From Gordius albopunctatus (lineage: Eukaryota): 64,000 nt of DNA. The notes under the pieces were generated by a model. That model saw nothing but the letters and a program-made list of their open reading frames with translations. It did not search any database and was not told the origin of the DNA. Positions within the stretch are counted from its first letter, which is position 1, and each line of letters opens with the position of its first letter. Both the position numbers and the translations under genes were made by a program. The stretch is taken from assembly GCA_964276515.1 (NCBI GenBank), contig OZ193910.1, positions 4,278,001-4,342,000 of the forward strand, read 5' to 3'. Positions 1 through 28,156 of this stretch are shown here, piece by piece.

Positions 1-962
1 CAATACTGACTCACAGAACAATTAAGGGTGGAAGGATAAGGTGTTTGTTGTCAAAACCTTCAAAAATTGTTGAAAATAAACTCTACTAACAAATGATCGC
101 CTTAAATCAGATTAAAAAATTACATGAAGTCAAAATAGACGACACAAAGTATTGCTTCATGATAATGTACAATTACACAGAGCGCAACTGGTAAAGAAGC
201 GATTGAACGTTTGGCTCGACTAACTCACCACACTTGGCTCCGTCCAAATACTGTTTACACCACAAAACATGCACTTTTTAATTAATTTAAAAAAAAAATT
301 GACAGAGAAATCAATTTTTTGGATATTTTTGTCTAGGCAGCGATGTGCTCTATTTCGAACAAAATGTTTTAATCTTTTAATCATATATATGAAATAAACC
401 TAAATATACTATGCAAGCCGGGTTTTATATTTATATACTTCTAATCCTTTAACATTGCTTTCGCTACTTCTGCATAATATTCAAAAATAAAAAATTTAAT
501 ACCTAAATAAAGCAATATTAATGTGGCTAATAATTGCTATGTATTCAACTTGCATATAAAAAGGCCTATTTTCTGGATAAATATAAAGTCTTCTCTATTA
601 AAGTAAAGGTTAAGTCCTAATAGCTTTAGAGTTTCCTTCCCGAAAATCAAAAGGGTTGATGGGGCTTTGAGGGTGGGGGGACCTAAGTCGTCCTATCTGA
701 ATTTATTTTTTAATAAAAAAATTTAAAAAATCCTAAGCCATTATGTAATTTACATAAATTGTTATCGTGTGAAAATTCGCCCCAAATATCCTTTTTTAGA
801 TACCTATGTTCAAGCGCTATAAAATTTCAATATGTTTATTACCTATTTTTTCTAAAAAAAATTTGCACGGTTCTTCTAATTTTTATATTTGAAATTTTTT
901 CCAATTACACTGTAATCTTTTCTCCCCGCGGACGTATATATTGATATTCATTCATCTAAGCG

Positions 963-980
963 GCTTCTTCCTTGGACAAC
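963..980 (+). promoter_or_regulatory. Pyrimidine tract (TCT/5'TOP-like start region) of RPS11
   Basis: cttcttcctt (964-973) lies just upstream of the RPS11 ATG at 981, as is typical of ribosomal protein gene starts. The TSS itself is not observable. Confidence 0.55.
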
Positions 981-2864
981 ATGGCTGATCAAGTAATATA
1001 TTTATACATCTTGCAAATATATTAAGATAATGCTGCCAGCCCCTAATAAAAATTATATTCAAGAAGTTTATTACTCATTTTCTACTAAAAAAGATAAGAA
1101 ACTTAAGTTGGCTCGTAATTTGGATCACAACACTAATTTCTATATTTCCCCTAGTTTTGATAAATTTCTTTTTGAAGATGCCTTTGATATTGTTCATAAA
1201 TTATCGGAGACTTCTTATAGTGTTGTTTACGAAGTATTGGAAAAAAGCACAGGATTGTTATATGCCCTAAAAATTTCGCATCATTTGCATTTACTAAATG
1301 AGATGCCTTATAAATGCCTGCCTAAACATTATAATTGTGTTACACATTACAAATCATGGTCAGAAAATGGGTTTTATTTTATATTAATGGAATTGTGTGA
1401 AAGAAGCCTTTTATATTATGATAGAAACTTGATAATGTTGAGGCACTTGAAGAAATATGTAATTGACATCATCAAAGGTCTTAATATGGTGCATAATCAC
1501 AGTATATTACATCTTGACATTAAGCCAGAAAATTTATTATTGAAGGACAATATGTGTAAAATAGCAGATTTTGGTATATCCACCCATATAAGTTCAAAGC
1601 ACATAGATGATGATTATGAAATACTGCAAGAAGGAGATAATAAATATATGGCACCAGAATTATTAAATGGAATCTACACACCTGCAGCAGATATTTTTAG
1701 TCTTGGTCTTACTATTTTAGAGATTTCCACAAATTTAGATCTGCCAAATTTTGGTGAATGTTGGCAAAATTTACGTTCTAACTTGCTTCCTAATCAAATT
1801 CTAAAAAATTCAGGTTATCCTGAATATTTTTTTGACCCTATAAGATGGATGGTTCATCCTAACCATAGGTTAAGACCTAGTGCTGCTGATCTTTTGTTTT
1901 CTCTTGATACCTGGATAAAACATGAAAATGAAGGATATTGGAACCTTTTAAAATACAAATTTTATGAAGTCAAACACAAAACAAAGCATTTACATAAAAT
2001 ATTGTCGTCCTTTTTTAAATCTAAGCTTTCTAGTCTATTTCCTAATAAATTATACCAACCAATTGTATCACCCAAAAATCAAATTTTAAATAAATGTTAT
2101 TCACAACCAGTTAAAAAATATAACTTGAGTAATGTTAAAAAAGCTATAAAATTTGAATCACCTGATAGTTATAATGATCTTTCAATCTGTAAAAGTTTAA
2201 TTGATGAATTTGAAATTGCATCCACAATATGATATATTTTTAATTGTATTTTTATGTAGCTTTTTTAAATAAAATTATATCATGTTGGTTATGTTTATTT
2301 GTATATATCCATAATTTTAGACCGAAAGAGCTTTTCAAAAGCAACCTGCCATCTTTCAGAATCATAAGGCTGCAATTAAAAGGAATAAAAAAAGCTTGAG
2401 GTATTATAAAAATATAGGGCTTGGATTTAAAACCCCTCGAGAGGTAACTGAACTCAAACATTATATGATTAATTAATCTTATTTAAAGGCAATTGATGGT
2501 ACCTACATTGATAAAAAATGCCCATTTACTGGCAATGTTCATATACGTGGTAGAATTTTAACTGGCATTGTATTAAAGACAAAAATGCAAAGGACTATTG
2601 TAGTCAGGAGGAATTATTTACACTACATACGTAAATACAACAGATTTGAAAAACGGCACAAAAACATTTCAGTCCACTTGTCACCTTGCTTTAGGTATGA
2701 TTTTTTTTATATATATAACTTAAACAACACTTTTTAGGGATGTGGCAGTTGGTGATTTAGTTACAATTGGGGAATGTAGACCATTAAGCAAAACTGTGCG
2801 TTTCAATGTTCTAAAAGTTACCAAATCAGCTGGTGCCAGGAAGAAAAGATTTCAGAAATTTTAA
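981..2864 (+). CDS. RPS11: 40S ribosomal protein S11 (uS17); exons 981-992, 2321-2443, 2489-2694, 2738-2864
   Basis: Spliced translation [20 protein letters not shown]...[40 protein letters not shown]...[65 protein letters not shown]...FQKF*. All introns are GT-AG (1328, 45 and 43 nt). AATAAA at 2883-2888. Confidence 0.97.
1030..2232 (+). CDS. PKMYT1: Myt1/Wee1-family CDK-inhibitory kinase (PKMYT1-like), uninterrupted ORF nested in RPS11 intron 1
   Basis: 400-aa ORF with [18 protein letters not shown], the Wee1/Myt1 signature [12 protein letters not shown], and the Myt1-like [35 protein letters not shown] at 2268-2273. Confidence 0.88.
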   Translation: MLPAPNKNYIQEVYYSFSTKKDKKLKLARNLDHNTNFYISPSFDKFLFEDAFDIVHKLSETSYSVVYEVLEKSTGLLYALKISHHLHLLNEMPYKCLPKHYNCVTHYKSWSENGFYFILMELCERSLLYYDRNLIMLRHLKKYVIDIIKGLNMVHNHSILHLDIKPENLLLKDNMCKIADFGISTHISSKHIDDDYEILQEGDNKYMAPELLNGIYTPAADIFSLGLTILEISTNLDLPNFGECWQNLRSNLLPNQILKNSGYPEYFFDPIRWMVHPNHRLRPSAADLLFSLDTWIKHENEGYWNLLKYKFYEVKHKTKHLHKILSSFFKSKLSSLFPNKLYQPIVSPKNQILNKCYSQPVKKYNLSNVKKAIKFESPDSYNDLSICKSLIDEFEIASTI

Positions 2865-3240
2865 ATTTTGTCATGATTGATTAATAAATTTGAAAATCAT
2901 GTAGCTTGTCATGATCTTGTTTGATATATGTATATAGATAAGAGCATTTGCCTTAAACCTTATATTCTACTCATTAAAAATATACTTTAAATGCTCTACA
3001 TTTTTTGTTTAAATTAGGATTTAAAACAAGTTTTTTAGATTAAAGAGGAATTATAAATTTAGTGATATTTTAGTTAACTTATTCATTGACCTACCTAATT
3101 GACTAGATATAAGACCTCTCATAAATATTCGTTAAATGACTTACCATATATATTAAATAGAAGTGGATTAATAATAATTTATAAATGTTAATCTAGGGTT
3201 TTTTAAAATTTTAATCCAACTAATAGGTTAAATAATTTTA

Positions 3241-3619: not shown

Positions 3620-4617
3620 CAGAGGTCAGATTTGTTTGGAATTTTATGCCCGAACCTGGCCTGGTTCAATTTTTTAATCTCATTGCCCGCCCAAACCCTT
3701 CTAGGTGTTCACCCGGGCCCGCCCGAAACATTAGAGCTGCCCGAAATGCCGGGATCTCAAATTCTTTCAACCACTATTAAAAAATAAGCATTAAATTAAT
3801 CGCATCATATTGAATAAAACAAATATAGCAATATTTTTTTCCAGGTCAAAATCTAACTATATTATTTAACAGTCGAATGATTTTTCCAAATAAAACTTAA
3901 GATCTTTGATTTCAATCCTAATGGGTCAAAAGAATGTAGGATTTGGTCTTTCTAAAATATTTAGCCAGAATTTTTTTAAAATATTGTTATCACTGGCAAA
4001 ACCGCTCTAGGTCACAATATTTTAATATATTAATTGCTAATCTATTTAGGTACAAACATGTTTCACGTTTACAAATTATATAACAGCAAAATATTAATTA
4101 AATGCAGCTGATGTCCTTGAAAATATTTATATAGCAATTTTTTAATCAAGTTTAAAGTATACATATTTTATAAATAATCCTACAATAAACAAAATTATAC
4201 TGCCCTTTAGGGTTAACCCATTTAAGTCCCTACCCTATGAATAAACTTCTCAATGAATAATTGTCAATTAGTCAATCTGTGCTCTTAGAATTTGAACTTA
4301 CTTTTGTGATTAAAAACAATTTGAATGTAGCTAAAGCTAGGGATAGGTACTTGATGGAAATAGAGTGGTTCGGGCAAAAATTATAGAAATAACTTGAAGA
4401 CAGATAGAGAAATCATGTTTCTTAACTCTTTTAGCATTTTTATATACAATCAAATAAAAAAGTAACAAAATAATACATTATCTAAAAAATGTTATTAAGC
4501 CCAAATTGCCCGAATCCTATCATCGTGCCCGCCCGAAAATAAAAATTTAGGGCAGCTGCCCGGCTCACGGACCGGGCCGGGCATGTTCGGCCATTCGGCC
4601 GGGAAATCTGGTCTCTG
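3620..4617 (-). mobile_element. Non-autonomous hAT element
   Basis: Imperfect TIRs CAGAGGTCAGATTT / AAATCTGGTCTCTG, 8-bp TSD atccatag/ctccatag (7/8), and subterminal gcccg repeats. Same family as 16269-17641, in the opposite orientation. Confidence 0.85.
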
Positions 4618-7020: not shown

Positions 7021-9409
7021 GTTGTGCGATACAAGTTTAAACTTTGCTGACTCTTAACCTATTTTAGAGGACATTGTAGTGGTGGTGGAGCTTGTGTACT
7101 CTCGTGATCCAAGAAGCTATACCTTTGGTAGTCAAACACAATTTTTATGTTTGTTACTGGTGGGGTCACCCTATTGGCAAGGTTCTTGGTGAAGGGTCAG
7201 ACTAAAATTTCTGGGCTTTTTGAGGGAGTACTTAGTGAAAGATAAGTTTAATTCACCAAAATGACTGCATCATAAAGAATAGTAGGTAGTCAAACGCCAA
7301 AATCTAACATAGTTCCGTTAGGCTTGGAAGGCCGGGATATCAATACTCCCTCATTCCATATAAACCAAAATGTATACTACAACAAAGACGCAGAATGAAA
7401 ACCACAGGGCGTCCCCCTTAAACGACGCGCGCATTCTTCGCCTGGAATGTGTGAGAAATAAACGAAGGCTACCGCTCTCTCAACAAACGGAAGCGGTTAA
7501 AGACATTAGTTTGCGTAGGATAAGGTTTGGGTCATGGAATATTGGTACAATGACTAGCAAGAGCAGAGAATTGGCAGACGTTCTAAGGAGGAGAAAAATC
7601 GATATCGCGTGTATACAAGAGACCAAATGGAAGGGCCAAAAAGCAAAATACATAGGGGACGGATACAAATTATATTTTTACGGTACAGAAACTCACCGGA
7701 ATGGCGTCGGTATAGTGCTATCGGAATAATTTCAGCAAACTGTCGTCGACGTTAAAAGAATCAATGATAGAATTATGGCGATATAGCTTTGTTATAAATC
7801 TACTACAATAAACGTTATATCAGCATACGCTCCTCAAAGTGGATGCTCTGAGACGGAAAAAGAGTGTTTTTGGAAGGAGATTAAAGATGTTCTACGCCAA
7901 TTCGGTAAAGAGGGGCTAATAATTATCGGAGCGGACCTCAATGGACACGTGGGCAAATCAAGGGGAGGATTTGAAATAAATCACGGTGGTCGGGGTTACG
8001 GCCTAAGAAATGAAGGAGGTACGGAAATTCTAGAAATTGCTCAAGCTTTTGACCAAGCAATAGGAAATACCTTCTTCAAAAAGAGACAACAGAAACATCT
8101 TATAACGTACAAAAGCGGCAGCCGTACCACTCAGATAGATTTCTTTCTAGTTAACAGAGCGCACTTAAAGATGTTCAAAATGTTAAGGTAATACCGAGTG
8201 AAATATTGGCCTGCCAACACAAGCTGTTGGTGATGGACTTTATATTAAAGGGTCTTAAAGGGCAAAAGGTACAAAGAGTAGCCGCTACTATACAATGGAA
8301 GAAACTAAAAGATAATATTCAACATTTTCAGGAACAAGTAATTAAACATGCTGAATTTAAGGAAAATACTTCATGTGAGGATCAATGGAATGGTATAGCT
8401 GCCACAATGCGAAAAGCGCGACGACAAATACTAGGTGAAAGCAAGCCCAATAAAAGAATTCTCAGAAGTGCAAAAATGTATCAAGGAAAAGAAGAGATTG
8501 TACAGTGTGGTATAAAAGCAATGATAGTAATGATAAGCAAACTTACCAAGTTGCTAAAAGATCGGCTTAAAAATTCGTAGCCAAAGCTAAAAACAAGGTG
8601 TACGACGATATAAATGTAAAACTCAACTCAAAGGAAGAAGAAAGATTGATCTACAAAATCGCAAAGTCAAGGGCCCGAAATTCTAAAGATTACCTAGAAT
8701 GCCGGCTAATCAAGGGTCAAAAGGGAGAAATACTAACACACGACAGCCATATACTACAAAGATGGTACGACTATTATAGCGATTTATCAATTGAAAAGGG
8801 GCCTGTAGTCGAAGACACTAACCAGGAAAATACAATAGGAGAATTAAACACAGCGGACTGGATCACAGAAACGGAAGTCAAAGTTGCTATGGGTAGACTA
8901 AAGTCAGGAAAAGCTCTTGGACCCGACAATATACCAATAGATGGCTTCAAAGCGTTAGGCAATACTGGTGCACAATTCCTCGCTTACCTTTTCAATAATA
9001 TCTTGAAAACGGGTAAAATGCCTAACGAGTGGAGGGATAGCTACATCATCCCAATATACAAGATGAAAGGGGACATTCAGGATTGGATAAAGCTTATGAG
9101 TCACACTTTCAAGTTGTGGGAAAAAGTGATCGAAAAACGGCTTCGGAGTTTGGTTCAAATTCGAGATAACCAATTCGGATTTATGCCTGAGAGGTGTACA
9201 ACAGACGCCCTAAACAGTGTTAGAAGATTAATGGAACGGTTTAAAGAAAGGGAAGAGGATTTGCACATGTGGTTCATCTATCTAGAAAAAGCGTTCAATA
9301 AAGTTCCTCGTAATTTAGTTTGGAAATGTCTTGAAGAAAACAATGTGCCAGAAGTATACGTCAGAGCAATAAAAGATATGTACAAGGGAAATAGAACGTA
9401 CGTTAGAAC

Positions 9410-10172
9410 TGTCAAATCTTCGTAACAATTGAGGGGATTTATATCTCGGAAATGTAACGTGCTAGGGGTAGACGGGGAAACTTTTATGTCCTCTAAAATT
9501 TAGCGAGAGGAGTGCTGTGGGCCAACTAGGGGTTTTATCCTTTATTATCTTTTGCACCTTTATTCCCTTTTTCTGAAATCCTCAAACTACTTTGTTCAAT
9601 TCAATTTTTGTTTATTACAATATCACTCCAGGATTCACTACATAATAATGATAGGTATATTTAACTACGTAATGACGAAATAATTGTGGGAACAACAATT
9701 AGGGTACGGGGATATAATCAGTACTTTGGAAACAGGGGAAATTTTGGTTTTCTAATCGCGTAATTCAGATTCTCTTTTGTATTGATTTTCGTATGGCTTA
9801 TATAGGTCTTATTTTTCTGGCTTGTATCTCTATCCTTGAAACTTCTTTTCTTTTCGACCCATTTTACCGCGCCAACTTTTGATGAATGGCCCTTCACTTC
9901 CAAGGATCTTGGAATTTTCGGCTGACAGTTCTAGTTTTCCCCCTACGTTTCTTGGGCCAATTCTTTATTTATAACCTGGTTTTGCTGTATCCTTGCTTTT
10001 CTCCGCTACTTCCCTCGAGCCATGTTTTGCTGTATCCTTGCTCTATTTCTCTACCAACCCAATCTTCGATAATCTTCCTCCGTCCTTAGCCCGCCTTTCC
10101 TCTTATCACGTGCGCCTCCCTAATAAGGACTGGTTCCCTTTTTGGGAGCGAGGGTCGCATGTATACATGACA
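9410..10172. mobile_element. Solo LTR inserted into the LINE RT
   Basis: Termini TGTCA...TGACA with a perfect 5-bp TSD agaac (9405-9409 and 10173-10177). The RT frame YVRT|SVGITKGF resumes after it. Confidence 0.85.
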
Positions 10173-10944
10173 AGAACATCGGTGGGGATTACAAAGGGCT
10201 TTGCCATTAACACTGGAGTCCATCAAGGTTCAGCTCTTAGTCCCTTCCTATTCATAGTGATAATGGATAATATTACCAAGGATTTGGGCGAGGAAGCTCC
10301 TTGGGCAATAATCTTTGCAGGCGATATAATCCTCTGGGCCAAAAGTTAAAAAGAATCGGCAATACTGTAAATAGATGGGTAAATGCAATAGAAGAAAGTG
10401 GTCTCAAGGTAAATCGAAAGAAAACAGAATATATGAAGAGAAAGTTTAAATCGAATGACAACTTACAAGCGTGGACTCCTTCAAATATTTAGGATCAACA
10501 CTTCAATCGGATGGTGGAATGGATAAAGAAATCCAAGCAAGGATAAATTTAGGATGGCTCAAGTGGAGGGACTTGACAGGTGTTATGTGTGACAAAAACA
10601 TCCTAAGAAGTCTAAAAGGCGCACTGTATAACTCCATCATACAGCCAACAGTCCTGTATAGCTCGGAATCATGGGCTATACGTAAAAGAGAAGAGCAACG
10701 TCTTGCGGCCATGGAGATGAGAATGCTAAGATGGGTGCTAGGAGTAAGCAAAAACGGACATATGCGAAATGAAGAAATAAGAAGAATTGTGGGTACTACA
10801 TCAATTGTGACAAAGCTCCTAACAAATAGACTAAGATAGTATGGCCATGTAGAAAGAAGGGACGATAGCTACGTAGGAAAGAAAATCGAGATGATAAGTT
10901 TCGCAGGAAAACGAAGGAGAGGAAGACCCAAGCTTACCTGGATT

Positions 10945-11080: not shown

Positions 11081-12682
11081 CCTGGATTCATAAAATACGG
11101 CATGATATGAAAGACCACAAGATAAAGAAAGATCTATGTAAACATAGAAACGAATTCTGAAAAGACTGACCACAAGCCTAGGTGAAAAGCAGTCATAGAA
11201 AGAAGAAAATTAATTTAGTCTGTATTTAACCAATATGTATTTTTTTGTATTACAATTATATAAGTAACTTTGTTTTGGTGAAAATAAACTTTTTAACCAT
11301 TAAAAAGATATCTGATGATAATTAGCCACCAAACTTGAATTTAATCTAATTGTAAGCAAAGTTAAAAAATGATTTTACCCTTGGACTACAAGGATTTCGC
11401 TAAATTTGTTGTCAAAAATAGCGGTTTTAGCAAGTCATAAGCTCGACTCGACAAGTATTTTGAAATTAAAATTTTTAAATTATGTCTCTAAATCTGCTTT
11501 TTAAACTCTCATATTATAAATCACTGGTGAATTCAGATTTGCTATGCTTATAGACATAAAAAATCACCTTATATTTTTGTAAATGAAATATAAGAACATT
11601 AATTTTTGTATATTTTTAAGTCGTCAAACTTTTTGGCCCAAATATTTTTGTTTAAGTGAGGGAGAATAAACAAATTTTTAAGATTCCTAAAGCAGTAAAT
11701 TAGTTTTAAAGAACTATAGATCAAAACTAAATATGGTTATAATTTATTTTATTTGTGACGGTACAATGCAGGTTGATTTTATACTCACTAACTTTATTTC
11801 ATGCATATCCCCCCCCCCCCGTATTTATAATATAGGGGCATTCCATGTCAACCCGTCAGATTTTTATGGGATTGTTAAAAATATAGAAACTACTGATTTT
11901 ATGAAATTTTTAGCTCATTCGGACCTTTAATTTTTTGTTTTGGGGGCTCAAAGATCAAAATTCGCTATTTTACGACATTGAGGCAGGACGCTAAATTCGA
12001 TAATTTCTAAAATCTTTACCCTCTAAATATAAAATCTTGCTGCAGTGATAGGCGAGACCTGATCTCCATAAAAAAGTAAATTTCTTTTGTCGATTAGACA
12101 TTTGATAATGGCCGAAATTTCATTTTTACCATTGCCTAGTCCCAAACTTTCTAAAATTTAAAACAAATCTTTTTTACCAGCTATATAACAATAAAAAGTA
12201 GGCATGAGATAAAACTTTCAGAATTTTATTAAAATAAATCGTTTGAGTTAAACTGGAAATTTAACAGGCTGCAAAATTAATTGCAGACTATTAAAAAAAT
12301 TTATTAAGGGTATGCGTTTAATAGGGATGAGGATAGTTTAATTACGAATCTACTTGGATTCGAAGTTACTTTTGAGATTTAAAAGTTTAACTATCTACAA
12401 AACAATTTCCTAGTCTTTAACTCAAAAGTCCTTATGATATGTTTCTAATTTCAAAACACTTGCATATTTATTTTGGGTTAGAAACAATGCTTAATACAAA
12501 GAATTGTATCTAACTATGCATCAAAATGATATACAGTACGTCATCGTCACTGTTTAAGGGTAATGAAAACTTGCTAAATAACCAAGATAAAAGAGGGAGA
12601 TGTACTGAAAAGAAAGGGCATAAGGGAAAATAAAGAATATCTAAAGTCATGAGTGGAGAGAGAACTAAGTTGTGGTGAGTTT

Positions 12683-15600
12683 TTAAGCTGATGATTTGTA
12701 TTCCTTGAGAAAATTCTTGAAGCCTTCGGCATCGCGTTTCAACATGTTTGCGTTGATAGTTATATTTTCCACAGATTGCTGAATTGAACGCTCAGCCGCA
12801 GGAGCTTCGTGAGTTTTGAAGAAAGTCTAAGCAAAAAATATAAACGATTTTAACGTATTGATTTAAGCAAATCAATTTGAGTAACATAAAAACCATAATA
12901 TAATTCGTAATTTTTTCATATTTGGCTACAAGAAAAGGTTAATAATTTACTTCCACATCCTTTGCCATTTCTTCAGAGGCGAAGTTGCTGGTACAGCTCT
13001 GCCGTATAAAAGTATTATAATGTATATTATCAATTATTAAAAAATGTATTTTTTTGGCAATGAATTTCATGGTGAAAATTTTACCTTGACCAATCGAGAC
13101 ATGAGGGTAAGGCCAGAGTACCAAGATAGAACGCGATCCCAATTTTCCTTGAGGTAATCCCAAGTCATTTGACGGCCCAGCTTGTGACCGCACATGCTAC
13201 TAAACACGGATGCCTTGTCTTGTAAACGAATTTCATCCTAATCGCCACGATAATACAATAAAAACTGACACAAAAATTTTAGACGCTACGTCAAGAGATA
13301 ACAAAGAAAAGGAGGCATTTCACCATTAGCTATTTAAATCAAGTTAATTAGTATTTTGTCTCTATACTTGAACCGTTTATATATTTAAATTATAATTATT
13401 GTTGAGTAAATAAACTAAACACAACGCCAACCAACAAAAAATTTTAGGCATGCCGTGTATAATAATTTTAATTTATAAATCGAAAATTTAGGGGTTTAAG
13501 CCGTTATCCATTATTGATCAAAATTTACGTCAGTAAGGAAGATTAGTTTAAAATAAAGACACGCTTACGGTATTCGCCAATTCCAAAGTTTTACGAATCA
13601 ATTTTTCGTCCTCCTTCAGGCCCAAACGCGAATATATGCGTATCTTTTCTTCTTGTTGATCGCTCTTGCGCGCTATCTGATTTGAACCAAAAATTTCATT
13701 ACATTAAATTTAGCAACGTAAAAAATTAAAATATAAGAAATGGGTATAATATATTTTGATGAAATAAACGCAAGATTCCCAATTAAAGATGTGGCAAATT
13801 AGTAAGAATATGAGGGGAACTATGGTAAGGAGTATATTACTTGCAAAAAGCGATCGTACATCTTTTCGTCGGCATCGGATAGCATAGCGGTGTAAACCTG
13901 GAAATAATGTAACTCACTTCAGATTTTTTAGTTTCTTTTATAAATACATGTCTCAAACAAGCTGCAAAGATATAAGCAATTCAACAAAAGCCCTAAAAAC
14001 ATTAATTAACATAATTAGTTAGCCAATTGAAACTTTTTCAGATATCTCCAAAAAACAATAATAAAACGCGATTATATACAAGAAAACGGGGGAAAAAGTA
14101 TAAAAGTCTCCAAAAATCAAGAGCATGGATGAGGCAATTTTTATTACCACAGCCCTCAAGTCACCAGACATTTCGCAGGAGCCTCCGCATAAGGCTTCGA
14201 ACCTGCGAGCCGCCTCTTCCTTTACTTCGGGGTACCCATAACGAGCCAGTCGCGATAGGATGATGACGCGCAACATGGAATTAACGTGATCTATAAGCAT
14301 TTGCACAAGATACGTATAGATCATAACCTCAAACCCATAAATTGCATAGCATTTGATACGGTGTAACTAGTGCTGTGCAGGAGCGCGTCATTTAAGACCA
14401 GCGCTATTAAAGAGGTAAACAGACTTAGTACCATCACCATTATATGTGTCCATTGTGAGATGCGCTTCCCTAATTCCCTTCCCCATGGTCCCAAATCTTA
14501 GAGGGGCGAGCGCTGTTATTTTCATAGCACCGCCGCATGTGCTCTGTTTTTAAACACGGGATAAATAGTCAAATTTTTAGGGGCTATTAGTAAATTTAAC
14601 AGCCATCTAAAATTTTAAAGAAATTTCCCGAAACGCAATTTGAAAAGTATTAAATCGAATCTTACATGCCTATAAACATATATCCTCAAATGACATTCTT
14701 TCAAAGGTTACTATTTTTAACCTCAAACCCAACCCAAAAATAGGAATTATTAATTGAATAAGCGCCAAAAAAGGACCAGAGCTAAACATGAATAACAAGC
14801 AGGAATGTAACCCTCAACTCAACGACCCCGAAATTGTAAAAAAATTTATCTTTAATAAACGACCTTTATCTCGCACACCCGCTGATTCCATGATAAGTTC
14901 ATAGTTATTTTAATTTCGACCCAAGCTTGCCCGACCGTCCATTAAAAACAAGTTAAGCTATATTTGGTTCATTTACTCTCTCCAGGCTTTGGATCCCAGC
15001 CGAGCTTTTTGTAGATGGGGGTCAAGAGGTCGCAAGTGAATTGCTTGTACCGTTTTTGTGTTTCAGATTCGATCCGAGACAAGCTGACTTGAGCACCTTC
15101 CGCGTATTGGGACAAGATGGCTAGGGTACTGAGAGAACCAGAGATGTCGCACCAAACTGCGTAATCCGTTTCATTCTTGTAAGCCTGCAGCAAAGTTAGG
15201 AAGGGAGCCACTGGCAAAACTCCCGCTTGCACCTGAAACAAAAATATGGTGTGGTCGTTTAAGAGCGCGATGAAAAAGCATGAACAAATTTGTTGTATTA
15301 AAGAAATTTTCATAGGCATGGCAGTGGGATAAAATATTTAGCAATTCATTTACAACCAACACCGCCATTATATCCTTAACTTGCAACCTCAACTTATTAA
15401 AAAATGCTAATTTATGTAGTTTACTAATTTCAACATTTTGACATAAGGCAACATTTATAGGAATAGCATATATTTAAATTTCAAAATTTCGATGGAATGC
15501 AATATAGGCGTTTGCGAGTATGATTAGGAGCATAAATCTTCAAAAGGTGAGATACAAGCATACTAGATTTCTAATTAATTTGTTGCAAAAAACGTGTGAT

Positions 15601-18600
15601 TTCAAATAAGGCAACAAGGTAGATGATACCAAAGCAAAGGAATCCGATTCGATCCCATAACGATCCAGGGGAGCTAGAGTGTTATCCTTGATGCCCGACA
15701 TGATAGCAGCCAACATCTCGGGGGAGTAATGGATGCGACAAAAACTGACCGTGTTGCAGTTAAGCTAGAGATTAATAAAAATAAAAATTATTAGAAGCTT
15801 TTTAAGATTCGTTTCATTGTAGGGAAAATTTATTTTTAAATCTTTTCATCTTAATGTTAAAACATATTTTAAATGAAGCTTATAGGTAAACAACATGTTC
15901 AATTCAATATTTTACCAGTAAACATTTCAACTGCCTAAATAAAAAATTTTATCCTTAAAAACGGCACTAAAATAGTGAAAATCTATATTTTCACCGCAAA
16001 TTGAAAGCCAAACATACTTTGATCCAATCCTCGGGCGGTACGTTATCAACCTTGATTTCCATGGACGGTTTGTCAATGAGCGTGGATGTTATGTGCTCTT
16101 TGGGATGACTCTTGGAACAAAACGTCATGGGAATTTCCCACACGGTACCGTCTACATTAAACGAGGTCATGCACAAAATTACCTTCTAATCCACAAAAAT
16201 AGTTCTTTTTATTATATTAAATTGTGGAATGGGGGGCTATTAACTAAGGGCATGCATAATGTATATATCAGAGACCAGAAATGCCCGGCCTCTTAAATTT
16301 TAATTTTCGGGCGGGCCCGGGCGGGCACGCTGATAAGATTCGGGCAATTCGGGCATGCCCAAAATTTTATCAAATTAATTTTCCTTGAAAAAAGAAAAAT
16401 TCGCTTATAAACAATTTTGGGCCATAATAAATGTGACTAGATATTTTTTCATCGCTTAAATCTTCATTGTACGTTTATATAGTGTCCTAATTTCAATTTC
16501 TTCAAAATTAAATTTCATTTCGAATAAATTAGTTTAACTGGTTTGTCTCAAGATCAAAAATTTTTAATTTTCAGATTATATTATAAAAGAATAAAATCAC
16601 AACGATTTTAACTGCCATGGGCGTAGACAAGGGGGGTGGGGGGCAGCTGACCCTCTCTAAACTCAAAAATTGTTAAAATGTATTAAAATTATGGCTAAAT
16701 TTTTAAAAAATGATCATTTTGCCCCTTCCTAAATCATTATTGCCCCCCTCTAATTTTAATGCTGGCTACGCCCATGTAAACTGCTACTCTAATCTAATAC
16801 TATGGAAGAAACCATTTTACTCTCTGGTAGTAAATTATTTTATTACATTTTTATCGCGTTCAGTTAAATCTTTGCCCTACTCCATTATGGAAAGGATTGG
16901 ATTATTTATATTTATGTAGTAGCCAAAGCCATTTCATTGTTCGCAATACACTACACATGTGTGCCGTCTAGACTTAAAACAAAGGCTCATGCCATTTTCT
17001 AACAATGCGCATAATTGTAATTCATTTAATTTCTTAACAACTAAAAAAACAAGATAGAAAAATAAAGCAAACAAGTCACATTAAAGTTATTAAAAATTAT
17101 AACTATTTTAGGTATCCTAAATTAGCAAGGCTTACAAAAATACTCTTTGCCATCTCGGCGACGAGTGCTGCTAGTGAAAGAAGTTTTTCTATCGCAGGAA
17201 GATTAATAGAGGAAAGACGCACAAGATTATCCCCGGAAATTGTCGACGATATGAATAAAATATTGTCATCTTTGTTCGGATCAATATGCCATTGCTTATT
17301 TTGTAATAGTGGCTAAAGATTTTGGGATTGGATAATTTTGGGTCTACCGGGAAAATTTTATTAATCAGGCCGGGCAGCTCTAATGGTTTGGGCATGGCTG
17401 AGCCGACACTTAGAAGGGTTCAGGCGGGCAATTTAGTTAAAATTGGACCGGGCCGGGTTCGGGCAGAAAAATTTAAACTACTCCGACCTCTTTTTGGGAC
17501 CTCATAAATTCGGGACTAACGGGCAAATTTAATATTTCGGGCCGGGAAATTCGGGCAGCTTTAACAATTCGGGCGGGCCCGGCGGGCAATGTTTAGTCGG
17601 GCCGGGTTCGGGCAGAAAATTCCCAACAAATCTGACCTCTGGTATATATTATAGTACCCCCAAATCAAGGGAGGCTTATAGTGAGGCATAAAACCATAAA
17701 CGTAATCGGTTTAATTGCAGATTAATATTGATTTTTCGTTGAATAGAGCAAAAACTCTGGGCCAAGTCTTTGGAACAGTTATGGGGTTGACAAATAATTA
17801 TGTAAATTAGTGCATACCATTAACGGGTCCCTGCAAAAGAAACTTTTTCTGCGACATTTTGATCTTGCGGGTGTTCCCTTCTTTCACCTCCTCAACCTAT
17901 AACCGTAAAAATATATAATACACGTTAACCATTGCCTACGAATTACCAGATTTTAATTAATTTTTACAAAAAGCCATCAAACAAACTACGAAAATACTTT
18001 AATACTCGAGAAAAATTTAAATTTAAACAAATCCCATTTTTGGGATCCAAACTCGATCATAAACTTATTAAAGATACACGCAACCATATAGAATGACCAC
18101 GTCCATAGTAATTCAAAGTTTGACATAAAATCTGCACTAACTATTCAAGGTAAGCCTTTCGCCAAAATCCTCAACAAATTTAAAGTCGGTCATAAGCGAT
18201 TTTTGATTTCCAAACGCAGGGTTTATTGTTTGGGATGACCTTAAATCTACTTTTATATAATGCCAAGTTTTTGATGAGTATTAAGTTACAAGAACATTGG
18301 TGGGTGGGTGGCAATAACAGTACCCCTTAAAACCTTTAAAAATTAAATTTCTCGCAAATTCTAAATAATTTTCATCAGTTAATATACCCAATCCGTAATG
18401 AATCATCCTTATAAAGGTATTTGTCAGAACTTACGCTAACTAGGGGAAACCCAATTTTCTTGTACCAGGTTTCCATGGACTTCAAATTTTTACCACTCGA
18501 TTTTTCTAGCGCCTCCATGAAGTCGTCTATGGTGGCGTTGCTAAACTTGAATTTGTTGAGGTAGATATTGAGAGCCTTCCTGAAAGCCTACCAATAAATA

Positions 18601-21600
18601 AATAAATGCAGGTATAATAATTAATCAACAGCTGTTAGTAGTTTAAATCTTTTCCGAACGAAACACCAATTTTGGATATTTTTCATTAATATTGTAAAAA
18701 TGACAAAAATTGAGTCACAAACTAAATAGTTTAATCTAGATAAGATATTTGTGAATCGATTCCCGACCGCCATAAATGTCTCAAATCAACATAATCAACT
18801 CCGCAATTAACGAATCCAAATAAACCTGATCAGTTTAAAAATGTAAGATTTTAAATCCAATATCTCGATGCTTCCCAATAATTCAGTTTTTGCCTAAAAT
18901 CAGCCATCTGCTAATCATGAAGTAACAACCTGCCGCCCGACCCCTGTGAAATTCAACCAAATCCCGATAACGATAAAGTTTACTAACTTTTACCTATAAT
19001 ATTTTTTAGAGATTAACATATAATTATAAATTCTGTATTTGGCTAAGGGCACTTTAAATCGAATTTCGATACAAAAACATGTACTCAGCCTTTTCACTTC
19101 TCTTTACAGTTTAAGATTAATATAAATCCAACCTCTGGTCCACAATATTCGTTCATCATTCGCAAAAATGAAGCACCCTTTTCGTACGAGATGGCATCAA
19201 AGATTTCATCGATTTCGTGGGGATGCTCCACGGTAACCTTACATAAGTATTAGGAGATTATCATCAATTCACTTCTTTTCCATAATTTAAACGAAATTAA
19301 GCCAAAAGCGGGTGAAAAATCTAGATAAAGCTTAAAAATTTGAAGGCAAAAACAAACGAGCTGGTAAAAATATTAAATCTGTGCAATCAAATGAATGTCG
19401 CTTAAAATAACAACGCTCATAGCAGAGAACATTACTTTAAGGTGTATAAGCTATTAGTATGTAAAAAGGTCACTTAAAATTATCCGCGTCAAAACTGCAT
19501 AAATTGTCAACAAAACTGTGTCATCAATAAGGACGTACGTAGCAATCAAGAATTCAAAGGTTAACATAGGTTTGATAAATTTCGTAAAAATCATCGTTAA
19601 TTTTAGGGCAAAAATTGATAAATAAAAAATCACTGTATAAATGTTAAAGTGTGAACTTCGATGGGATGGCTAGTGGCCAAAGAGTCGAGGGAAATGCCCT
19701 CGTGGAAGCTGGAGGAAACGAATTGAGTCCAAATATCGTATTCCGGGTAGCATTGACTTATGCAATGGAAGGAGACCCAAGTGGCGAAGCCTTCGTTCAA
19801 CCACAAATACGTCCACCATTCCTTTTACATCAAAATAAGAAGCACGAATGTTAAAAAGTTTCAAAGTGATACTAACTTAAATTATTTAATAACGGATTGT
19901 GATGCAAAATAATAGGGATAAAGTTGTTAGATACCTAAATTTACGAAGATTATATATAATTTATTCTTGCTAGCTTTAAAAGCTAAGCTACCACAAAAAA
20001 CTTGAGCGTATCTCGAGGTATAAACATTTAAGCATTCCTTAAAGACAATTTCAGAGTATTGGAGTTACATATATAATTTTATAGGTTCTTATGGTACTGA
20101 GTACAAATCAAACTCACCTCAAAAAGTCATATTAAAGCTCGTGATTCGCAAAAACTTTAAACGAAATATCTTAAAGTTACATATTAAACGCCACGATAAA
20201 AAATATGTGTGTCTTACCATGGTTGCCAGGTTACCGAACCATTGATGTCCCAATTCGTGAGCTATTAAATGAATAATATTATACAAGTTTATTAAAAATA
20301 GTATTCTATCAAACATTTCGTCGAGATATGCAATAGGCGTTGTAGTGGTCTTTGTTAGCCCGCATAATAATTAAAACACATCAGCTAGAGTATATTTATG
20401 ATCTAATTGCACTGTTATGAGACGGTCACTAGCGCAACAAAGTAAAAGGCTATTAAATTTTGCCTATATATTCATCATTTCTCCCATATTTGCAAGTTTA
20501 AAAGTCCCTGTTCATAGACCATAGAATTTTCAACGGAAAATAAAGTAAGACTCTCATTTAAATTTAAAGTAGGGAGATGGAATAAATTCTTCAACTTAGC
20601 GAGGAGCTTTGTCCTAAGATTTGCTTAAAGACTGATAATGCAAGACTCGAATTATCGTTCAGCTTCTAGAAAAACGACCTAACCGAGAATTTTGGACATT
20701 TGACTTTTATAAATATATATGCTTTTTTCCCATTGAAACGGGTGAATGATTCTTGCGATAATTGAAACCAACGCATTAAATCCAATAATATCCCAGCAAC
20801 AAGGTGAAATAGTAAAACTAAACTAAACTTTTAAATCATAATTCTGTGGATTAAGAAGATATTAGCAATCTTACCCACGACTATGGCAATGTAATTTTTG
20901 GTGTTGGTGGATGAGGTCTTCTCGTCTAGCAATATACAAACCTCGCGGAACGTTATCAAACCCCAATTTTCCATGGCGCCTAGGAATAATTAAAAATTAT
21001 TTAATTAACTTAGTGAAAATAAGTTATCATCACTATAATAAATAATTACGTTTGGGTAAAATAATTTGTTATGACCACTACTACTATAAACTTGACAAAA
21101 AAAAGGATACGATTGCAAGTGCTTAACTTTAGTGTATAATTTACCGAAAGCAAAATCGGGGATGGATATCAAATCGCATTTGGGCAATTCGTATTTGATG
21201 CCAAAGTAATCTTCGTAAAAGGCCAAGGACTTGATAGTCACCTAAAGGTATCCGTTTTAAAAGGAAAAATATGGGAAAATGCAATTTTTTGCCTATATAT
21301 AAGGTAACTTGCTAAGGATACCCGCCTCACTTTAGCTATGATGATAATAAAAGCATGACAAATAAATATATGGTATTAGACATATTCCAAACAAGTATAA
21401 TAAATAACACGATAAACTTAATATATCGTAAGTTAGAATGATTTTGTGGTATGGATAAGGATGCGATAGAACTATAATAACCTAGAATATTTTGTTTTGG
21501 CGCTAGCTACTTTTCAAAGAGGTAGACCGTGAAAGTCAAATAAACGCCCCATCAAACCCAAAAAGTACTCGAGACCGTTATGGAGCCAAACACAACTACT

Positions 21601-24600
21601 CAAGTGCTTAAAATGCGTATGCAGAAAGGTTATCATCGCAGCATTGGAACTTTGATCGAGACCTTAAACACTTTAATAACAACACTTTTGAGACGATATA
21701 TAATACTTACTTCTAAGGCAAACTTTCCCTGCTCCTTTTTGCCGATGGGTGTGTAGACGCGGCAAACCACGCCCCGGTCGCTTTTACCCTCCACATAATC
21801 GAATTCCCCGACCACAAAAGCGACGAGATAGGTGGACATGATGGGTGTACACTGAAATTTAACCGTTTTTTCGCCTGCCTTCTCATCCAAATCCTCCTTT
21901 TCAGGTGGCTACTCGTAGGCACATAAATATATATAGTTACGTTGTGATCGGATAGAAAAATAAAAAGTAGCCATTTTTTGTATAACATCTATTTGGTAAA
22001 AATGGATTGAAATCTCGGTACGAGCTTCCCTTAATGGCTGCTTATAGTGTTATAAAAAAGGCGGGGACTCGACTATATACTATACCATTAACGAACCGAA
22101 GGTTTGACAGGCTTGACTAAAGAACCTTAAAGGTATTTTTATGGGACTAAGAAAAGGAGAACAAAAAAGGTCTGCTCATATTTAGTAGACTAAAGCCAAA
22201 GGTCGACCAACAAAACCCCCCGCCGTTTCTACAACGACGCCAGCTGGTTACCATACTTGACACCAGCCCCATTTTAACGTTTTATATCAAAATTATCATG
22301 GAAAATGTGTCGGAATTTCAAAATAACATCGCATGGCTAGTTAATACACTTCACGCCAGGGTGATTTTTTAAATTTTGGATAGAAATCGTGTTAAAATCT
22401 CTCAATAGCATCATCGCCCATTCTCAATTTCAATAATCAAATATAATATTACACCAGGGGGTTTAAAAGGGATGACGTGCTAGAATATGGTATAATAGTA
22501 AAGAAGCGATGTTTTTAATTGGATATTATTCATTCAAAAAAAGCAGGGTTGATAACCCATTAAGCTAGCAGCCGCTCAGGCCATTATTTAGGAAAAAGTC
22601 AATTTTTCATCTACATGATAGTTAGCTCGTGCGATGTAAACAATGGGAAAACGTAAAAAATTATATCCCAAAGCAACTTGTCACTTGAAAATACATGGTA
22701 AACCTGATATTTGCTCTCTCAAAACTTGATTCACGCGGTACATAACACATTATTTATACGAAAAAGCAGGTGGCAAACGCGTAGTTTGGGTAAAAAACAA
22801 AAGTTGTCGCTCTGCCTCGGAGCGCCTAATTTGGCGTATTCGTTCAGGACAAAAAGTGTAAAGATTAGGGGGGGGGGGGGTTAATAAGTGCCAAAAACGT
22901 ATATTTTTACCCCGTTAACCTATTATTGACGCCGATGGATTAAAATCGATTTTGAAATATATAAAACGAAATTCTATTGTGCAAAATTATTGGCAGCGAT
23001 AGACGGCAATTGGCTCTGTGCTTGAGCAAATTTTGATAGGAGGTGCCAAAATTATATTATTTTTAAACCCTCACCTAATCCCCCTCCCCCCTCCCAAGGG
23101 CTTGTGTCTTAATATCGGATTTAGCTGCGCAGCAAAAATCGTTATACGGGTTATAACATAGCCCCGTGTGTCTTAACTTGGAATTCACAGCGGCAGATTT
23201 ACGTTTCAGACGACGCATAACATAGGAGCGATTAATATCAAGAGTTGAAAAAATAAACGGAAAAAGAGTTTTAACTATCAAAAAACAAAATACTAATAAT
23301 TACAACCGAGTTTGAGACATGAAATTGAATCATAGGATATCTGATAAAGATAAATTCGCGCCATTTGAATCTGAATCCGATATTAAGACGTAATATGGCG
23401 CTCAAAAGATTAAATGAATTTAGTTGGATGACCTCAATTGAATAATAGGGGTTAATGGGATTCACCAAGGCTAAAATAAAAATACTGCACCTTGCTAAAA
23501 AATATTATGGGCAAAAGTTATGATTTTTTGTAATTATATTAATGATTGAATCAATATTCATTTTTCATCATCATTTATTCATAGTTATTTGGCATTTGTC
23601 ATTAGTGGATGCAAAAATTTTTGATTTTTTAATATGGTTGAAAACTAGAGAAGCATTGTAACTTTTATATTAGATAAATTTCATTGTGCAAAATGTTTCT
23701 AAAATTATAATTGACAAATATGGGCTTAGCATCAATTCTACAAGTGAACCTAGAATTTGGTTGCTTGTTAGAAGAAATAAAAAACATGTTTCAGATAGAA
23801 GATTATTAACTATTAATATTAGGTTTAAACATGATTGTAAAATATTGATAAAAAAAGAACAGCTAAAATAATAGATTTTTCAAGGTATGAGCTTAAACAA
23901 GTCTTTAGTTAATTTTTACACATTGGCAGGCCAATAAAGCAAAATTTATACGTTTAAGAACTTTCATGGTAAAAAAATAATTAAAATGTGCATGGTAAAA
24001 ACAAATAATAAATTGTTATTAATAACCCTTTGAAAACATATAATAGAGTTTCATGACTTTTTTATAAATTTGTTAAAACAGGTACAAAAAATATATACAT
24101 ATATATAAAATAAATCAGACTTATTAATTATAAATTTAAACAGCGCAACTATAAAATTAAAATAGAATTGTGACTCAAAACTCATTTAAAGCATATTAAA
24201 GTTTAAGAGGTCTTTAAACAATCAACTAAAATATTGTAAATAAAAATAAAAAGCATTAGTGTAATTTTTAAAACAAAATTACCATGTTGGATAGAGCTAC
24301 AAAATCTTTTGGTGCTACAAGGGTTATTGAAAATTTAGATTTGATAGCTGGTTCATCCCAACAAGGAAAAGCACGTCTGGCATCAGTTGACTACCAGAAA
24401 AATTTACCAAACTAAATATAAAATACCTCAAAGTGAGTGGTTGCAGCTATCTTTTCTTTTCCTTCATACAGATATTTAGTGAAGTAAAAGCCTCTCATTT
24501 TATCAGATAGTTTGCCACTAAAGGAAAGATTCAAATCAGCCTTTCCAGGGTCAATAACATTTGGAAATTTTAGTATGGCTTGTTCATTTTCCAAATCATA

Positions 24601-24929: not shown

Positions 24930-26887
24930 TATAAATGAATGTAGTCTTTAATAAAAACAGATAATATAATGAGTGTTAAAATGATCTACGATCGATAAAT
25001 AGGTTGGCGTCGCTTCAACAATTATTTTTACTTGGGAAATTTTTGATGTCGGATGTGTGGAAAAACCGCACGTGTTAAGGAAATCGCTTTAATCATATGG
25101 TCTTATAACAAATAGTAAAACATCTTATTTTGTTTAACATATATTTATTAATTCCAGCATGTTAAAAGCATTTAAAAATATTGGTGATAGTGATTTTGAC
25201 ATATTTCTTACAACCTTTTATTTCTTACAGCAATTTAATCGTCTCCTATCATATGAAAATATTTTTCAAGTTTTTTATAATTCCAAATATATATCACAAT
25301 GTTGTGAAAGAGAATGTAAACTTGGCGAAATTTTTTATTGTTTTTTTTGATGATTTTGGCCTTGATATGCATGTTTTAAATTAATTTGAAATTTTTAAAA
25401 ATTCCATGTATCTATGCTACAAAATTATATTAAACATTACTTACTGGATATAATATCAAAATTTGCCATAGATCTTATATGTCATGATAAAATGACTTAA
25501 TATTGGGTTATCAAGTCATAATATTTAATAAGATTGAATTGAGGTCGACATGTTACGGGTATTGCTTTCAAAGGCTAATTAGACGTCATTTGTGACCCTA
25601 TGTTTTACTATTGGTACCTTAAGAGAATACTTTATAATTATATCTCGATTATAGCAAATATATTTAGAGTTACTACTGCTTGCAAGTACTTTGAGTTGAT
25701 GTCTATGATCCGTTTCACTTGAAATTATATGGCTGAAGTGCGTAGTGGTTAAACAACTTTGTCTCTAATAACCCTAATTTAGTTAGAGGCTGAAACACGG
25801 TCACTCAAAACTGGCCTAATATGCCTACTTTTTAAGCTTTATTCCCGCTTGCTGTCAAGTAAAGTGTAATGTAAAATGTGAGAGAAAAAGGGCGGTAGTC
25901 TACACTACACCTCAATATATCTTGTTAAGAGGATATTATAATCATCCCCCTCTCTATCCCATGCTACACATTAAATTGACACAATCAATAAAACTGATTG
26001 GAACAAATCGATGACCTAACAAATATAATACTTGATTGCAATGACCTAGTATCAAAAATGCGACATATGCGCTAACCCACGAGTGACTTCAATACTTAAA
26101 ATTCTAGATTGGGTCTTCAACTTACGACCCCTCTTCGCCCGTGAGTTCATCACCGCAACTAATTTTACGAAAAATTTTGTTTAATACAACGTGTGGACAT
26201 GATAACCAGATAAAAAGTTCTATTTATTAGAAAAGATTCAGATCTATAAAAGAGACTAACAAGTGACAGTAAAAGCATAAACAGATTTGATGTTTAAGGA
26301 TGTTCACCAGCTTACTCAGCAGGTTTATTTAAGGTGGTATCTCGCCAATCATATGCAAAATCCTCTATAACTGTATTTTCTTTGAAGCCGTGCCCTAATA
26401 CCCCCTTTTTATACAAAGTCATTTAGTTAAGAGAATTTATAACGTTATATAAAAGCATTTTTACATGTGAATAGTATCATAAAAGACTTATATAGCAAAA
26501 TAATCATGGATATACATAAATATAAAAGACTCAAATATTTCTCATTTTTTAATAATATTTAAACTCTTAATAAAATCCCTTTAGAGGGCCTGGTGTGTTA
26601 ATAATACTTGCTTTTAAGAATCGTTGAGAAAGAATGGCTAAGATTTAATGCAACAATAAATAAATATTGCGTTGCACAGTCATTTTCAATTGTTAATGCA
26701 TTAAATCAATTGCGGAAAAGATTATAAAGGCAAAGGTTTATGCTTTTTACTAATAAAGTGACTTTTAGGGACTGTTAATAAGGTCCTAAAATTTTTCCCT
26801 TTTTTATACAAATATTGTTTTCTGTAAATATCCCCTCATGTGATAAATCTAACAAACATTTATCAGTTCCTAATCAATTGATCTTCT

Positions 26888-28156
26888 ATGACATCGGGTG
26901 ACCTTGGTAATAAAGCTGATTCAATAATTAATTTGAATGTAGGCGGTCAACAATTTTCTACAAAATTAGCCACTCTAATCGAAGATGCTGCAGTCTCATC
27001 AAAATTTAGAGAATGGCTCTTACCAATTCCAAGTCTTGGAAAAGATACTGATGGGCGCTATTATATTGATCGAGATCCTGAGCCATTTTACTTAATTTTA
27101 GAGTATTTGAGGAGAGGATCATTACCTGCGAATTTAGAAAATTACTTAACTGAAATGCTTATTACAGAGGCTAAATACTACAACATACCATCACTAATAG
27201 ATTTCTTGTTAATCACGAAAGAAAATAAAGTTGGTTTTAAACCCGCACTTTCAACATTTAAAGATAATTCAAGCTTCGTGAAATTCAAAGAAGCCTTTAA
27301 AAATATGATTTTACATAGAGTAGTGGAATGTTTGAAAAATGATTATACAGACGATATCAAACTTTGGATATATTTATCAAGCGACAACGATCAACAAAAT
27401 GTAAATGGCGAAAAGGCAAGTTTATTTTTGTGATTAAATTGAACACTAATTCCCAAAAACAAAGTGGTTCGATTAATTTCTAAAACCGCTTTATTTTTAA
27501 GGTTACTTTAAAATTAATCTTGTGAGCTATTATATTAAAACATTTTGGGTTTATATATAGAAATGTCTTGTAAATAATAATCAACTTTTAAAGCCCATCC
27601 TTTTAAGTATAAAATTCTGTTGTTACAAAAATTGCATTGCTAGAAAATTTTGCAAAAAATGTCAATCATATATGTTTATAAATATTTAATATGAATTTTT
27701 GTTATATTGCGTTGCAAGGAATCTTATGGGATTGACGAAAATTTATTTGCTGAGGCTATTGCAATATCGGAAAGTTTCATAATCTTGTTAATGCACGGAA
27801 TAAATAAGAGCAATCCGACTCCCTTAGATGTCAGTAATGATAAAGATATATTCAAAACCTACAAAAACTTAATTCTAAATTCAGCGTGGGAATTAAGCAT
27901 ATCAGGTTTTTCAATTCGACTTAAAACTCCTATCTTAAAAAGTGGCAATTTAAAAATTCCAAATTCACTAGTAGAAGTATGCTTTCCTTTTATTTCAAAA
28001 CAGAATAGTGAAAGTTTCGATTCAAAGCTTGATATTTTGCGAGACATCGATTCCTTATTAACAGCAATTAGTAACCGAATGAAAATTATAAATTTGGGGG
28101 CTCTAAGATTGCAGAGCGTCTCCGAGCGAGGTGATCTTAATAAAAGCAAAATATGA
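26888..28156 (+). CDS. BTB/POZ-domain (KCTD/T1-type) protein; probable exons 26888-27415 (or -27400) and 27719-28156
   Basis: IINLNVGGQQFSTKLATL...DTDGRYYIDRDPEPFYLILEYLRRG..LITEAKYY is a T1-type BTB domain. Phase-0 donors aat|gtaaat (27401) or aag|gcaagt (27416) join in frame to acceptor gcaag|gaa (27718). The second exon is inferred. Confidence 0.75.

Follow-up and report, generated by a model that had tools for sequence, protein, structure and literature searches.

A Myt1-type kinase gene nested within intron 1 of the ribosomal protein gene RPS11 of a horsehair worm, with sequence features of a probable shared transcription unit

Near the start of a 64-kb stretch of the genome of the horsehair worm Gordius albopunctatus (contig OZ193910.1, positions 4,278,001 to 4,342,000; the whole stretch is hereafter the window), the gene for ribosomal protein RPS11 carries within its first intron, and on the same strand, an open reading frame (ORF) for a protein kinase of the Myt1 type. 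RPS11 is laid out on the forward strand in four coding exons (981-992, 2321-2443, 2489-2694 and 2738-2864, the last including the stop codon), giving a product of 155 amino acids that equals the RPS11 of Gordionus, also a nematomorph (Nematomorpha, horsehair worms), in length and in its MADQTERAFQ start. Over the 68 amino acids of exon 3 the two proteins are 94% identical, the highest identity among the 120 RPS11 matches listed, and an AATAAA at 2883-2888 is the candidate RPS11 poly(A) signal. Intron 1 measures 1328 nucleotides (nt; 993-2320, GT..AG), with its junction placed by homology, and introns 2 (2444-2488) and 3 (2695-2737) are 45 and 43 nt long. The kinase ORF (1030-2232, forward strand) is a single exon of 1203 nt encoding 400 amino acids, which begins 37 nt beyond the exon 1 donor and ends 88 nt short of the exon 2 acceptor. 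An earlier note on this DNA had described a Myt1-like kinase filling RPS11 intron 1 on the same strand, with the remaining introns at 43-45 nt, and all of its coordinates were reproduced here.

The kinase ORF is far longer than expected by chance, since in 300 shuffles of intron 1 the longest stop-free run averaged 59 codons and reached 114 at most. Of eleven listed sequencing runs, eight were compared (X1, X2, X3, X5, X7, X8, X9 and X10, with X4, X6 and X11 left out), and of these X1 and X2 possibly stem from the window's source sample. Single contigs of X2 cover 700-1807 and 1828-3100 with zero differences, and one contig of X7, which has a different organism code and comes from a different study, lies over 940-1991; because exon 1 and the kinase are spanned by single contigs in both, the nesting is not an assembly join. 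Exon 1 (981-992) encodes MADQ, matching the start of Gordionus RPS11, and is the only such site in the window, where ATG-GCN-GAN-CAR-GT occurs a single time on both strands, at 981.

Splicing of the short introns is seen in contigs identical to the exons: a single X5 contig at depth 2 lacks the 45-nt intron, and contigs of X5, X8 and X10 lack the one of 43 nt. The four runs guessed to be RNA gave short RPS11 contigs at a depth of about 2-6 that reach exons 2-4 only and are uninformative on kinase expression; the splice from 992 to 2321 is in no contig of the runs compared, and X3 yielded only two short AT-rich pieces. One X5 contig that ends at 2321 has a different RPS11 start and belongs to another organism. 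The earlier note had named an RPS11 first exon downstream of 2232 as an observation that would count against it, and none was found: the reading frame is closed immediately upstream of exon 2, and this part of the intron contains no exon resembling MADQ. A scan of 700-3100 against Rfam gave no RNA family at E up to 1, so no small nucleolar RNA accounts for the intron.

In both sequence and fold the kinase is closest to Myt1/PKMYT1/WEE-1.3. Pfam Pkinase matches residues 55-289 (E=1e-33), comparison with PDB sequences places Myt1 (E=1.5e-36) before Wee1 and Wee2 (6e-21 to 5e-19), the named best protein matches are Myt1, and Foldseek ranked Myt1 entries ahead of Wee1 when given the predicted structure, a kinase fold with a mean predicted local distance difference test (pLDDT) score of 65, built on an alignment of 8. 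The beta-3 lysine (Lys81) and the helix C glutamate (Glu91) align with their counterparts in other Myt1 proteins, and the EGD..YMAPE segment and the N-terminal FSTKK motif are shared with Myt1/PKMYT1/WEE-1.3. The catalytic loop is HLDIKPEN at residues 161-168 (non-RD), and residues 180-182 are DFG, which marks Myt1, with DLG marking Wee1, in the available text of PMC6149964. At the C-terminal end, an [RK]xL-type motif (2191-2211) aligns with the [RK]NL motif that closes other Myt1 proteins. In Myt1 this motif has a role in cyclin binding. The corresponding motif of fly Myt1 is termed putative in the accessible part of PMC13398180.

Unlike these proteins, the window kinase has no GxGxxG, no introns, a 9-residue deletion, a short tail and no clear hydrophobic anchor. 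The P-loop position (residues 58-65, 1201-1224) holds zero glycines, as does that of the Gordionus kinase, whereas a glycine-rich P-loop is present in 117 of the 119 other kinase matches listed, the two exceptions being cut at the N-terminus. Across a wider set the glycines are missing in 7 of 112 proteins, namely two from Gordionus, four that are N-terminally cut and one of full length (P0342). The deletion, which lies ahead of helix C, is also common to both nematomorph kinases. For the tail, the best 19-residue hydropathy is 0.43, against 1.10 in Gordionus and a median of 1.49 in 108 others; values as low occur in 6 of the 108 and only 49 reach 1.6, so that this is a weak test for the transmembrane segment with which Myt1 proteins are described (PMC13398180, available text). 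The kinase is probably without a membrane anchor, judging from its hydropathy. To call it a complete kinase, as the earlier note did, is right for the unbroken ORF, but the protein is atypical in its missing glycine-rich loop and weak anchor signal, neither of which the note mentions.

A tree built from 24 of 30 chosen rows (six were dropped by a motif filter, and no animal Wee1 was included) pairs the window and Gordionus kinases at 100/99, on a long stem (1.16), outside the 18-row animal Myt1 set (88/89, not starred). The tree does not confirm Myt1 orthology, and the kinase is termed Myt1-type here. Myt1 kinases phosphorylate CDK1 at Thr14 and Tyr15; the present protein would probably still hold CDK1 in check, whether through phosphorylation or through binding, with an altered roof to the ATP site. 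Directly after the helix C glutamate, both nematomorph kinases have a methionine (Met92, 1303-1305; the Gordionus protein is P0001) where other aligned Myt1 proteins mostly have valine. The RefSeq model of the Gordionus kinase begins at this methionine and omits the start of the N-lobe; the model may be cut short, or may describe a shorter isoform.

The top match of the window kinase is that of Gordionus (E=5e-69), the two being 50% identical with the frame intact in both. The X7 contig joins exon 1 to the kinase, ends before exon 2 and differs from 940-1991 of the window at 68 positions with no gaps (93.5% identity); just upstream of 940 the alignment breaks, 88 nt being replaced by 77. Counts against X7 use the 40 of 66 difference places that were listed, which within the kinase cover codons 1-186. 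Over these codons the synonymous rate (dS) is 0.18 and the non-synonymous rate (dN) 0.05, a ratio of 0.28 (17 synonymous and 22 non-synonymous differences; p=2e-4), so the kinase is under purifying selection. Split by half, the ratio of non-synonymous to synonymous proportions (pN/pS) is 0.44 in codons 1-91 (p=0.056, borderline) and 0.15 in codons 92-186 (p=9e-5). The nested feature is real and selected.

It is very improbable that the ORF is a decaying or silent processed copy, with a normal intron-containing Myt1 elsewhere in the genome. A dead copy would suit the loss of all P-loop glycines, the loop before helix C that is 9 residues shorter, a P-loop tip that differs even in X7 (Tyr63 to Asn) and the long stem branch, but the frame is intact in the window, in Gordionus and in the listed part of X7, and the low pN/pS of codons 92-186 stands against decay. 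No second copy at 80% DNA identity was present in X1 or X2, and no second Gordionus Myt1 name occurred among the 120 matches listed (some names being incomplete or absent) or the 10 looked up (five unnamed). These results lend weak support to Myt1 possibly being a sole copy. Among further nematomorph kinases, Gordionus alone was found in a near-length search, in HMMER over 1.84 billion representatives and among shorter proteins; a metagenome locus (L001) was distant, at 28% identity to the kinase, and was not used.

As to how the kinase came to lie in the intron, a retrocopy origin is plausible, given the single exon. Its 1203-nt ORF is unbroken by introns and adjoins intron-rich genes. Missing introns are a weak sign of a retrogene because a heparanase-like gene in the window also has a long exon, and nesting itself may hinder intron gain (PMC1435931, accessible part). 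No direct repeat pair flanks the kinase ORF, and the event would be old. The gene would probably have come in as a processed copy, ahead of the divergence from Gordionus, and the feature is probably common to other horsehair worms. The Gordionus accessions of RPS11 and Myt1 are consecutive in two annotations, in opposite order (CAK9301164/CAK9301165 and XP_065321566/XP_065321565).

Several features upstream of the kinase bear on its transcription. A TATA-like hexamer at 935-940, of a kind common in AT-rich DNA and of putative function, stands 29 nt upstream of a candidate start at a pyrimidine tract (964-973, C plus nine pyrimidines), which has no listed X7 difference and could serve as a terminal oligopyrimidine (TOP)-like start common to both products. 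TOP mRNAs have a cap-adjacent C followed by pyrimidines and are translated in a growth-dependent manner; the tract matches the TOP/TCT consensus imperfectly. A second pyrimidine tract upstream (914-928), a possible other start for RPS11, lies within the part that does not align in X7. From 940 to 1029 there is one listed X7 difference in 90 nt, compared with 16% at synonymous sites (p=2e-6), and 993-1026 likewise has one in 34 nt (p=0.02). On this comparison, the DNA between the candidate start and the kinase ATG is under strong constraint.

Downstream of the kinase stop codon, an AATAAA at 2268-2273 with a GU-rich stretch after it is the candidate kinase poly(A) signal; shuffles of the stretch from stop to acceptor give such a signal by chance in about 7% of cases. 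A hairpin is predicted over both the stop codon and this AATAAA (2225-2287, -12.4 kcal/mol, z -3.6), and it is marginal because 6 of 124 matched control blocks do as well. U-rich cytoplasmic polyadenylation elements (CPEs) are typical of maternal cell-cycle mRNAs, but the CPE-like motifs at 2238 and 2250 (2238-2270) arose in 22% of shuffles and were dropped as evidence.

The earlier note had proposed a single transcription unit with two mutually exclusive products, RPS11 or kinase. The sequence makes this the likeliest reading, and we regard it as probable when its spliced and unspliced variants are taken together: the kinase has only 37 nt of room upstream, 940-1029 is conserved, an AATAAA stands at 2268, the two genes are neighbours in Gordionus and there is a precedent in insects (PMC1435931). 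The layout and the shared unit were already part of the earlier reading, which had overlooked the in-frame acceptor at 1025-1026 that offers a mechanism.

Splicing from the exon 1 donor to this AG would remove a candidate intron of 34 nt (993-1026) and fuse MADQ in frame to the kinase, giving a protein of 405 amino acids. An in-frame AG at an intron length of 31, 34 or 37 nt occurs in 8% of shuffles. The acceptor is an AAG, as is the one that ends the contig-supported RPS11 intron 2, and X7 keeps both the donor and the AG at 1025-1026, with an out-of-frame AG at 1038-1039 lost. When the kinases are set in a gap-free register, the AAG acceptor codon of the window falls opposite a lysine of the Gordionus kinase, whose first methionine is four codons away from that of the window kinase; AAG accounts for 8 of the 40 lysine codons of the window kinase. 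The 34-nt stretch also contains a perfect 10-bp A-U stem (994-1003 with 1015-1024), and it is alone in having a 10-bp stem among the window's 335 GT..AG stretches that are AT-rich and 30-50 nt long. In-frame acceptors at 1098 and 1107 were rejected, as their use would delete the conserved N-terminal motif.

Taken together, the AG, the AATAAA, the pyrimidine tract and the hairpins fit a single promoter with a major long and a minor short splice. A promoter near 964 would drive both products. Most transcripts would lose the full 1328 nt and encode RPS11; in a small share the exon 1 donor would be spliced to the AG at 1026 in place of the AG at 2320, removing 34 nt, and the RNA would end at the AATAAA at 2268, giving a 405-amino-acid protein that opens with the four residues of RPS11. 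The short intron, the donor within a hairpin and the poly(A) signal within a hairpin would act as weak signals that limit the kinase share, and would therefore let a low-abundance regulator use a strong housekeeping promoter without draining RPS11. To this specific version, with the kinase as a minor alternative product of RPS11, we give an even chance.

Several points count against it. The 5' hairpin is weak (-3.9 kcal/mol, with 11 of 200 dinucleotide shuffles folding equally well), and both hairpins were chosen post hoc out of 22 inverted repeats. An intron of 34 nt would be shorter than all seven others measured in the window, to which RPS11 contributes two, of 43 and 45 nt, and an aminopeptidase gene five, of 86-331 nt. 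Both species have an in-frame ATG just ahead of the conserved N-terminal motif, which would be superfluous under splicing, and the Gordionus lysine could be encoded by AAA. Neither Gordionus annotation begins the kinase with MADQ, one starting at its own methionine and the other at the methionine after helix C, and a MADQ start occurs in 0 of the 146 kinases with a catalytic-loop pattern among 379 proteins. The consecutive accessions show that the Gordionus genes neighbour each other, and they fit an overlap without implying nesting or strand. Up to two further X7 differences, beyond those listed, could fall in 940-1029.

Some of the same observations suit an unspliced mRNA, which would start at the shared promoter, retain 993-1029, end at 2268 and be translated from the ATG at 1030 by leaky scanning or reinitiation. 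We hold this, the chief competing explanation, to be possible but on the whole unlikely. No 34-nt intron is needed, the 10-bp stem would mask the donor, and an in-frame ATG lies within five codons of the conserved motif in both species. Retention of 993-1026 would create an upstream ORF of 14 codons (981-1025) that stops 4 nt before the kinase ATG, and earlier, after 7 codons, in X7. A start at 964 would leave a 5' untranslated region of about 17 nt, placing the RPS11 ATG near the cap; that ATG, however, sits in a strong sequence context, with A at -3 and G at +4, and it is the position of the methionine that varies between the species and the lysine column that is constant. An unused 5' splice site, moreover, usually suppresses nearby poly(A) sites.

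The constraint on 993-1029 is also compatible with promoter elements, and the kinase might have its own start at or in the intron, for example from a germline promoter overlapping exon 1, as an ordinary nested gene on the same strand. A TATA-like stretch lies at 997-1006, the Gordionus RefSeq kinase is a separate gene beginning at an internal methionine common to both species, and FlyBase deems same-strand nesting not unusual enough to flag, according to the available part of PMC4528330. Initiation 30 nt past the 997-1006 stretch, though, would hit the ATG itself, and a later start would drop residues 1-91, which are conserved with Gordionus and have the borderline pN/pS of 0.44 given above. 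We consider an independent start improbable.

The position of the AG at 1026, three bases ahead of the ATG, would also suit a trans-spliced leader added to the RPS11 pre-mRNA in the style of nematode operons, which would free a kinase mRNA beginning at the ATG at 1030. Nematodes are usually regarded as the sister phylum of horsehair worms, which counts in favour of such a mechanism. The cis donor 34 nt upstream would compete with the leader, however, and the available texts of two nematomorph genome papers do not contain 'trans-splic', and we think trans-splicing here highly improbable.

The preferred reading of one promoter and two alternative splices has its nearest counterpart in the dicondylic insects, where Su(var)3-9 is one exon of more than 1450 bp within an intron of eIF2gamma, in 21 species and for about 400 million years, sharing with its host the promoter and 80 residues (PMC1435931, accessible text). 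There, too, the intron of a strongly expressed translation gene houses an unrelated single-exon regulator on the same strand, and the insect pair has a shared promoter, start codon and N-terminal residues through 3' alternative splicing, a proposed origin by retrotransposition and long retention. Its authors propose that the nested gene parasitises a strong host, and view it as a weakly expressed passenger (same source, in the part available). In our case only 4 codons, not 80, would be shared, the nested acceptor lies 34 nt from the donor, and a ribosomal protein gene that has a TOP-like start acts as host; splicing is demonstrated in the insects and predicted from the sequence here. The genes and the phylum are other than those of eIF2gamma/Su(var)3-9, and the origin is therefore independent.

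Two further systems are comparable in part. In C. elegans, unc-17 lies inside the first intron of cha-1 and has a common first exon with it (PMC3875643, available text), so that exclusive products arise from one pre-mRNA, as suggested here; in that pair, unlike the RPS11 case, the common exon carries no coding sequence, the nested gene is divided into three exons and both products serve a single pathway. In flies, 130 genes have a promoter and 5' exons in common, including RpS27A with Ip259, and coding sequence is shared in 10 pairs and a triplet (PMC4528330, accessible part). RpS27A resembles RPS11 as a ribosomal protein gene that shares its promoter and 5' untranslated region with an unrelated gene, but no shared coding sequence is listed and the partner is not a cell-cycle kinase. 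It is the sole RpS/RpL symbol in supplementary file 6 of that study, and Myt1 is not present in the portion available (12 files searched, file 1 not among them; 2 of 25 'CDS overlap' rows). The accessible part of PMC2246290 has nothing on nesting. No paper was found on a pairing of Myt1 with an RPS11 intron or on nematomorph Myt1/Wee1, in a search that left subscription journals mostly outside, and literature on pseudokinases, the glycine-rich loop and Wee1 gave no match. The available texts of the Gordionus genome and comparative preprints give no nematomorph intron statistics, neither using the word 'intron', and that of the comparative preprint contains no Myt1 or Wee1.

An unrelated single-exon gene in a host intron, an in-frame acceptor and an AATAAA of its own, the features of shared-first-exon nesting, are present in the sequence, and their use is predicted. 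The layout is most likely a new, independent instance of this rare, known arrangement, with two unusual extras: the host is a ribosomal protein gene that has a TOP-like start, and the Myt1 has lost its glycine loop. Ribosome biogenesis might be coupled to entry into mitosis or meiosis, as the earlier note proposed, but the insect precedent favours a passenger. A fuller reading, which we offer tentatively and as unlikely to hold in all its parts, is that the only Myt1 of horsehair worms would be a minor splice product of RPS11, with its TOP leader and first four codons, whose output would be set by which intron is removed, the 34-nt or the 1328-nt one, and by growth signalling; the protein would be soluble and free of the glycine loop, and may rely on binding more than on catalysis to hold CDK1-cyclin B.

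Were this fuller reading true, ribosome supply and the entry into division or meiosis would be tied together in a parasite whose juvenile grows fast and whose reproductive adult does not feed. A shared transcription unit would place a conserved cell-cycle brake under a ribosomal protein promoter, perhaps with TOP control of translation. It would also be an independent repeat of eIF2gamma/Su(var)3-9, suggesting that low-abundance regulators come repeatedly under the strong promoters of translation genes. A Myt1 that selection maintains although its glycine loop is gone offers a natural way to gauge what share of Myt1's work is catalytic, and nested layouts of this kind may be split or truncated in current nematomorph annotations.

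Elsewhere in the window, an intron-rich M1 aminopeptidase gene lies at about 12680-21990 on the reverse strand, with an ERAP1_C match, GAMEN and HEXXH, and the five introns of 86-331 nt mentioned above, which were placed by eye. The heparanase-like gene, of glycosyl hydrolase family 79, occupies 34738-37217 on the same strand; its first open frame runs to about 1.1 kb, and it apparently has a single intron. An ORF with a BTB/POZ domain lies on the forward strand at 26882-27430. Transposon remains at 7364-10836, 29622-30164 and 32032-33783 include fragments of endonuclease and reverse transcriptase, a dimerisation domain of hAT type and a weak match to reverse transcriptase. Two GC-rich stretches in AT-rich DNA, at about 3640-3760 and 4500-4610, have similar CCCG/CGGG motifs and are possibly the ends of a small mobile element.

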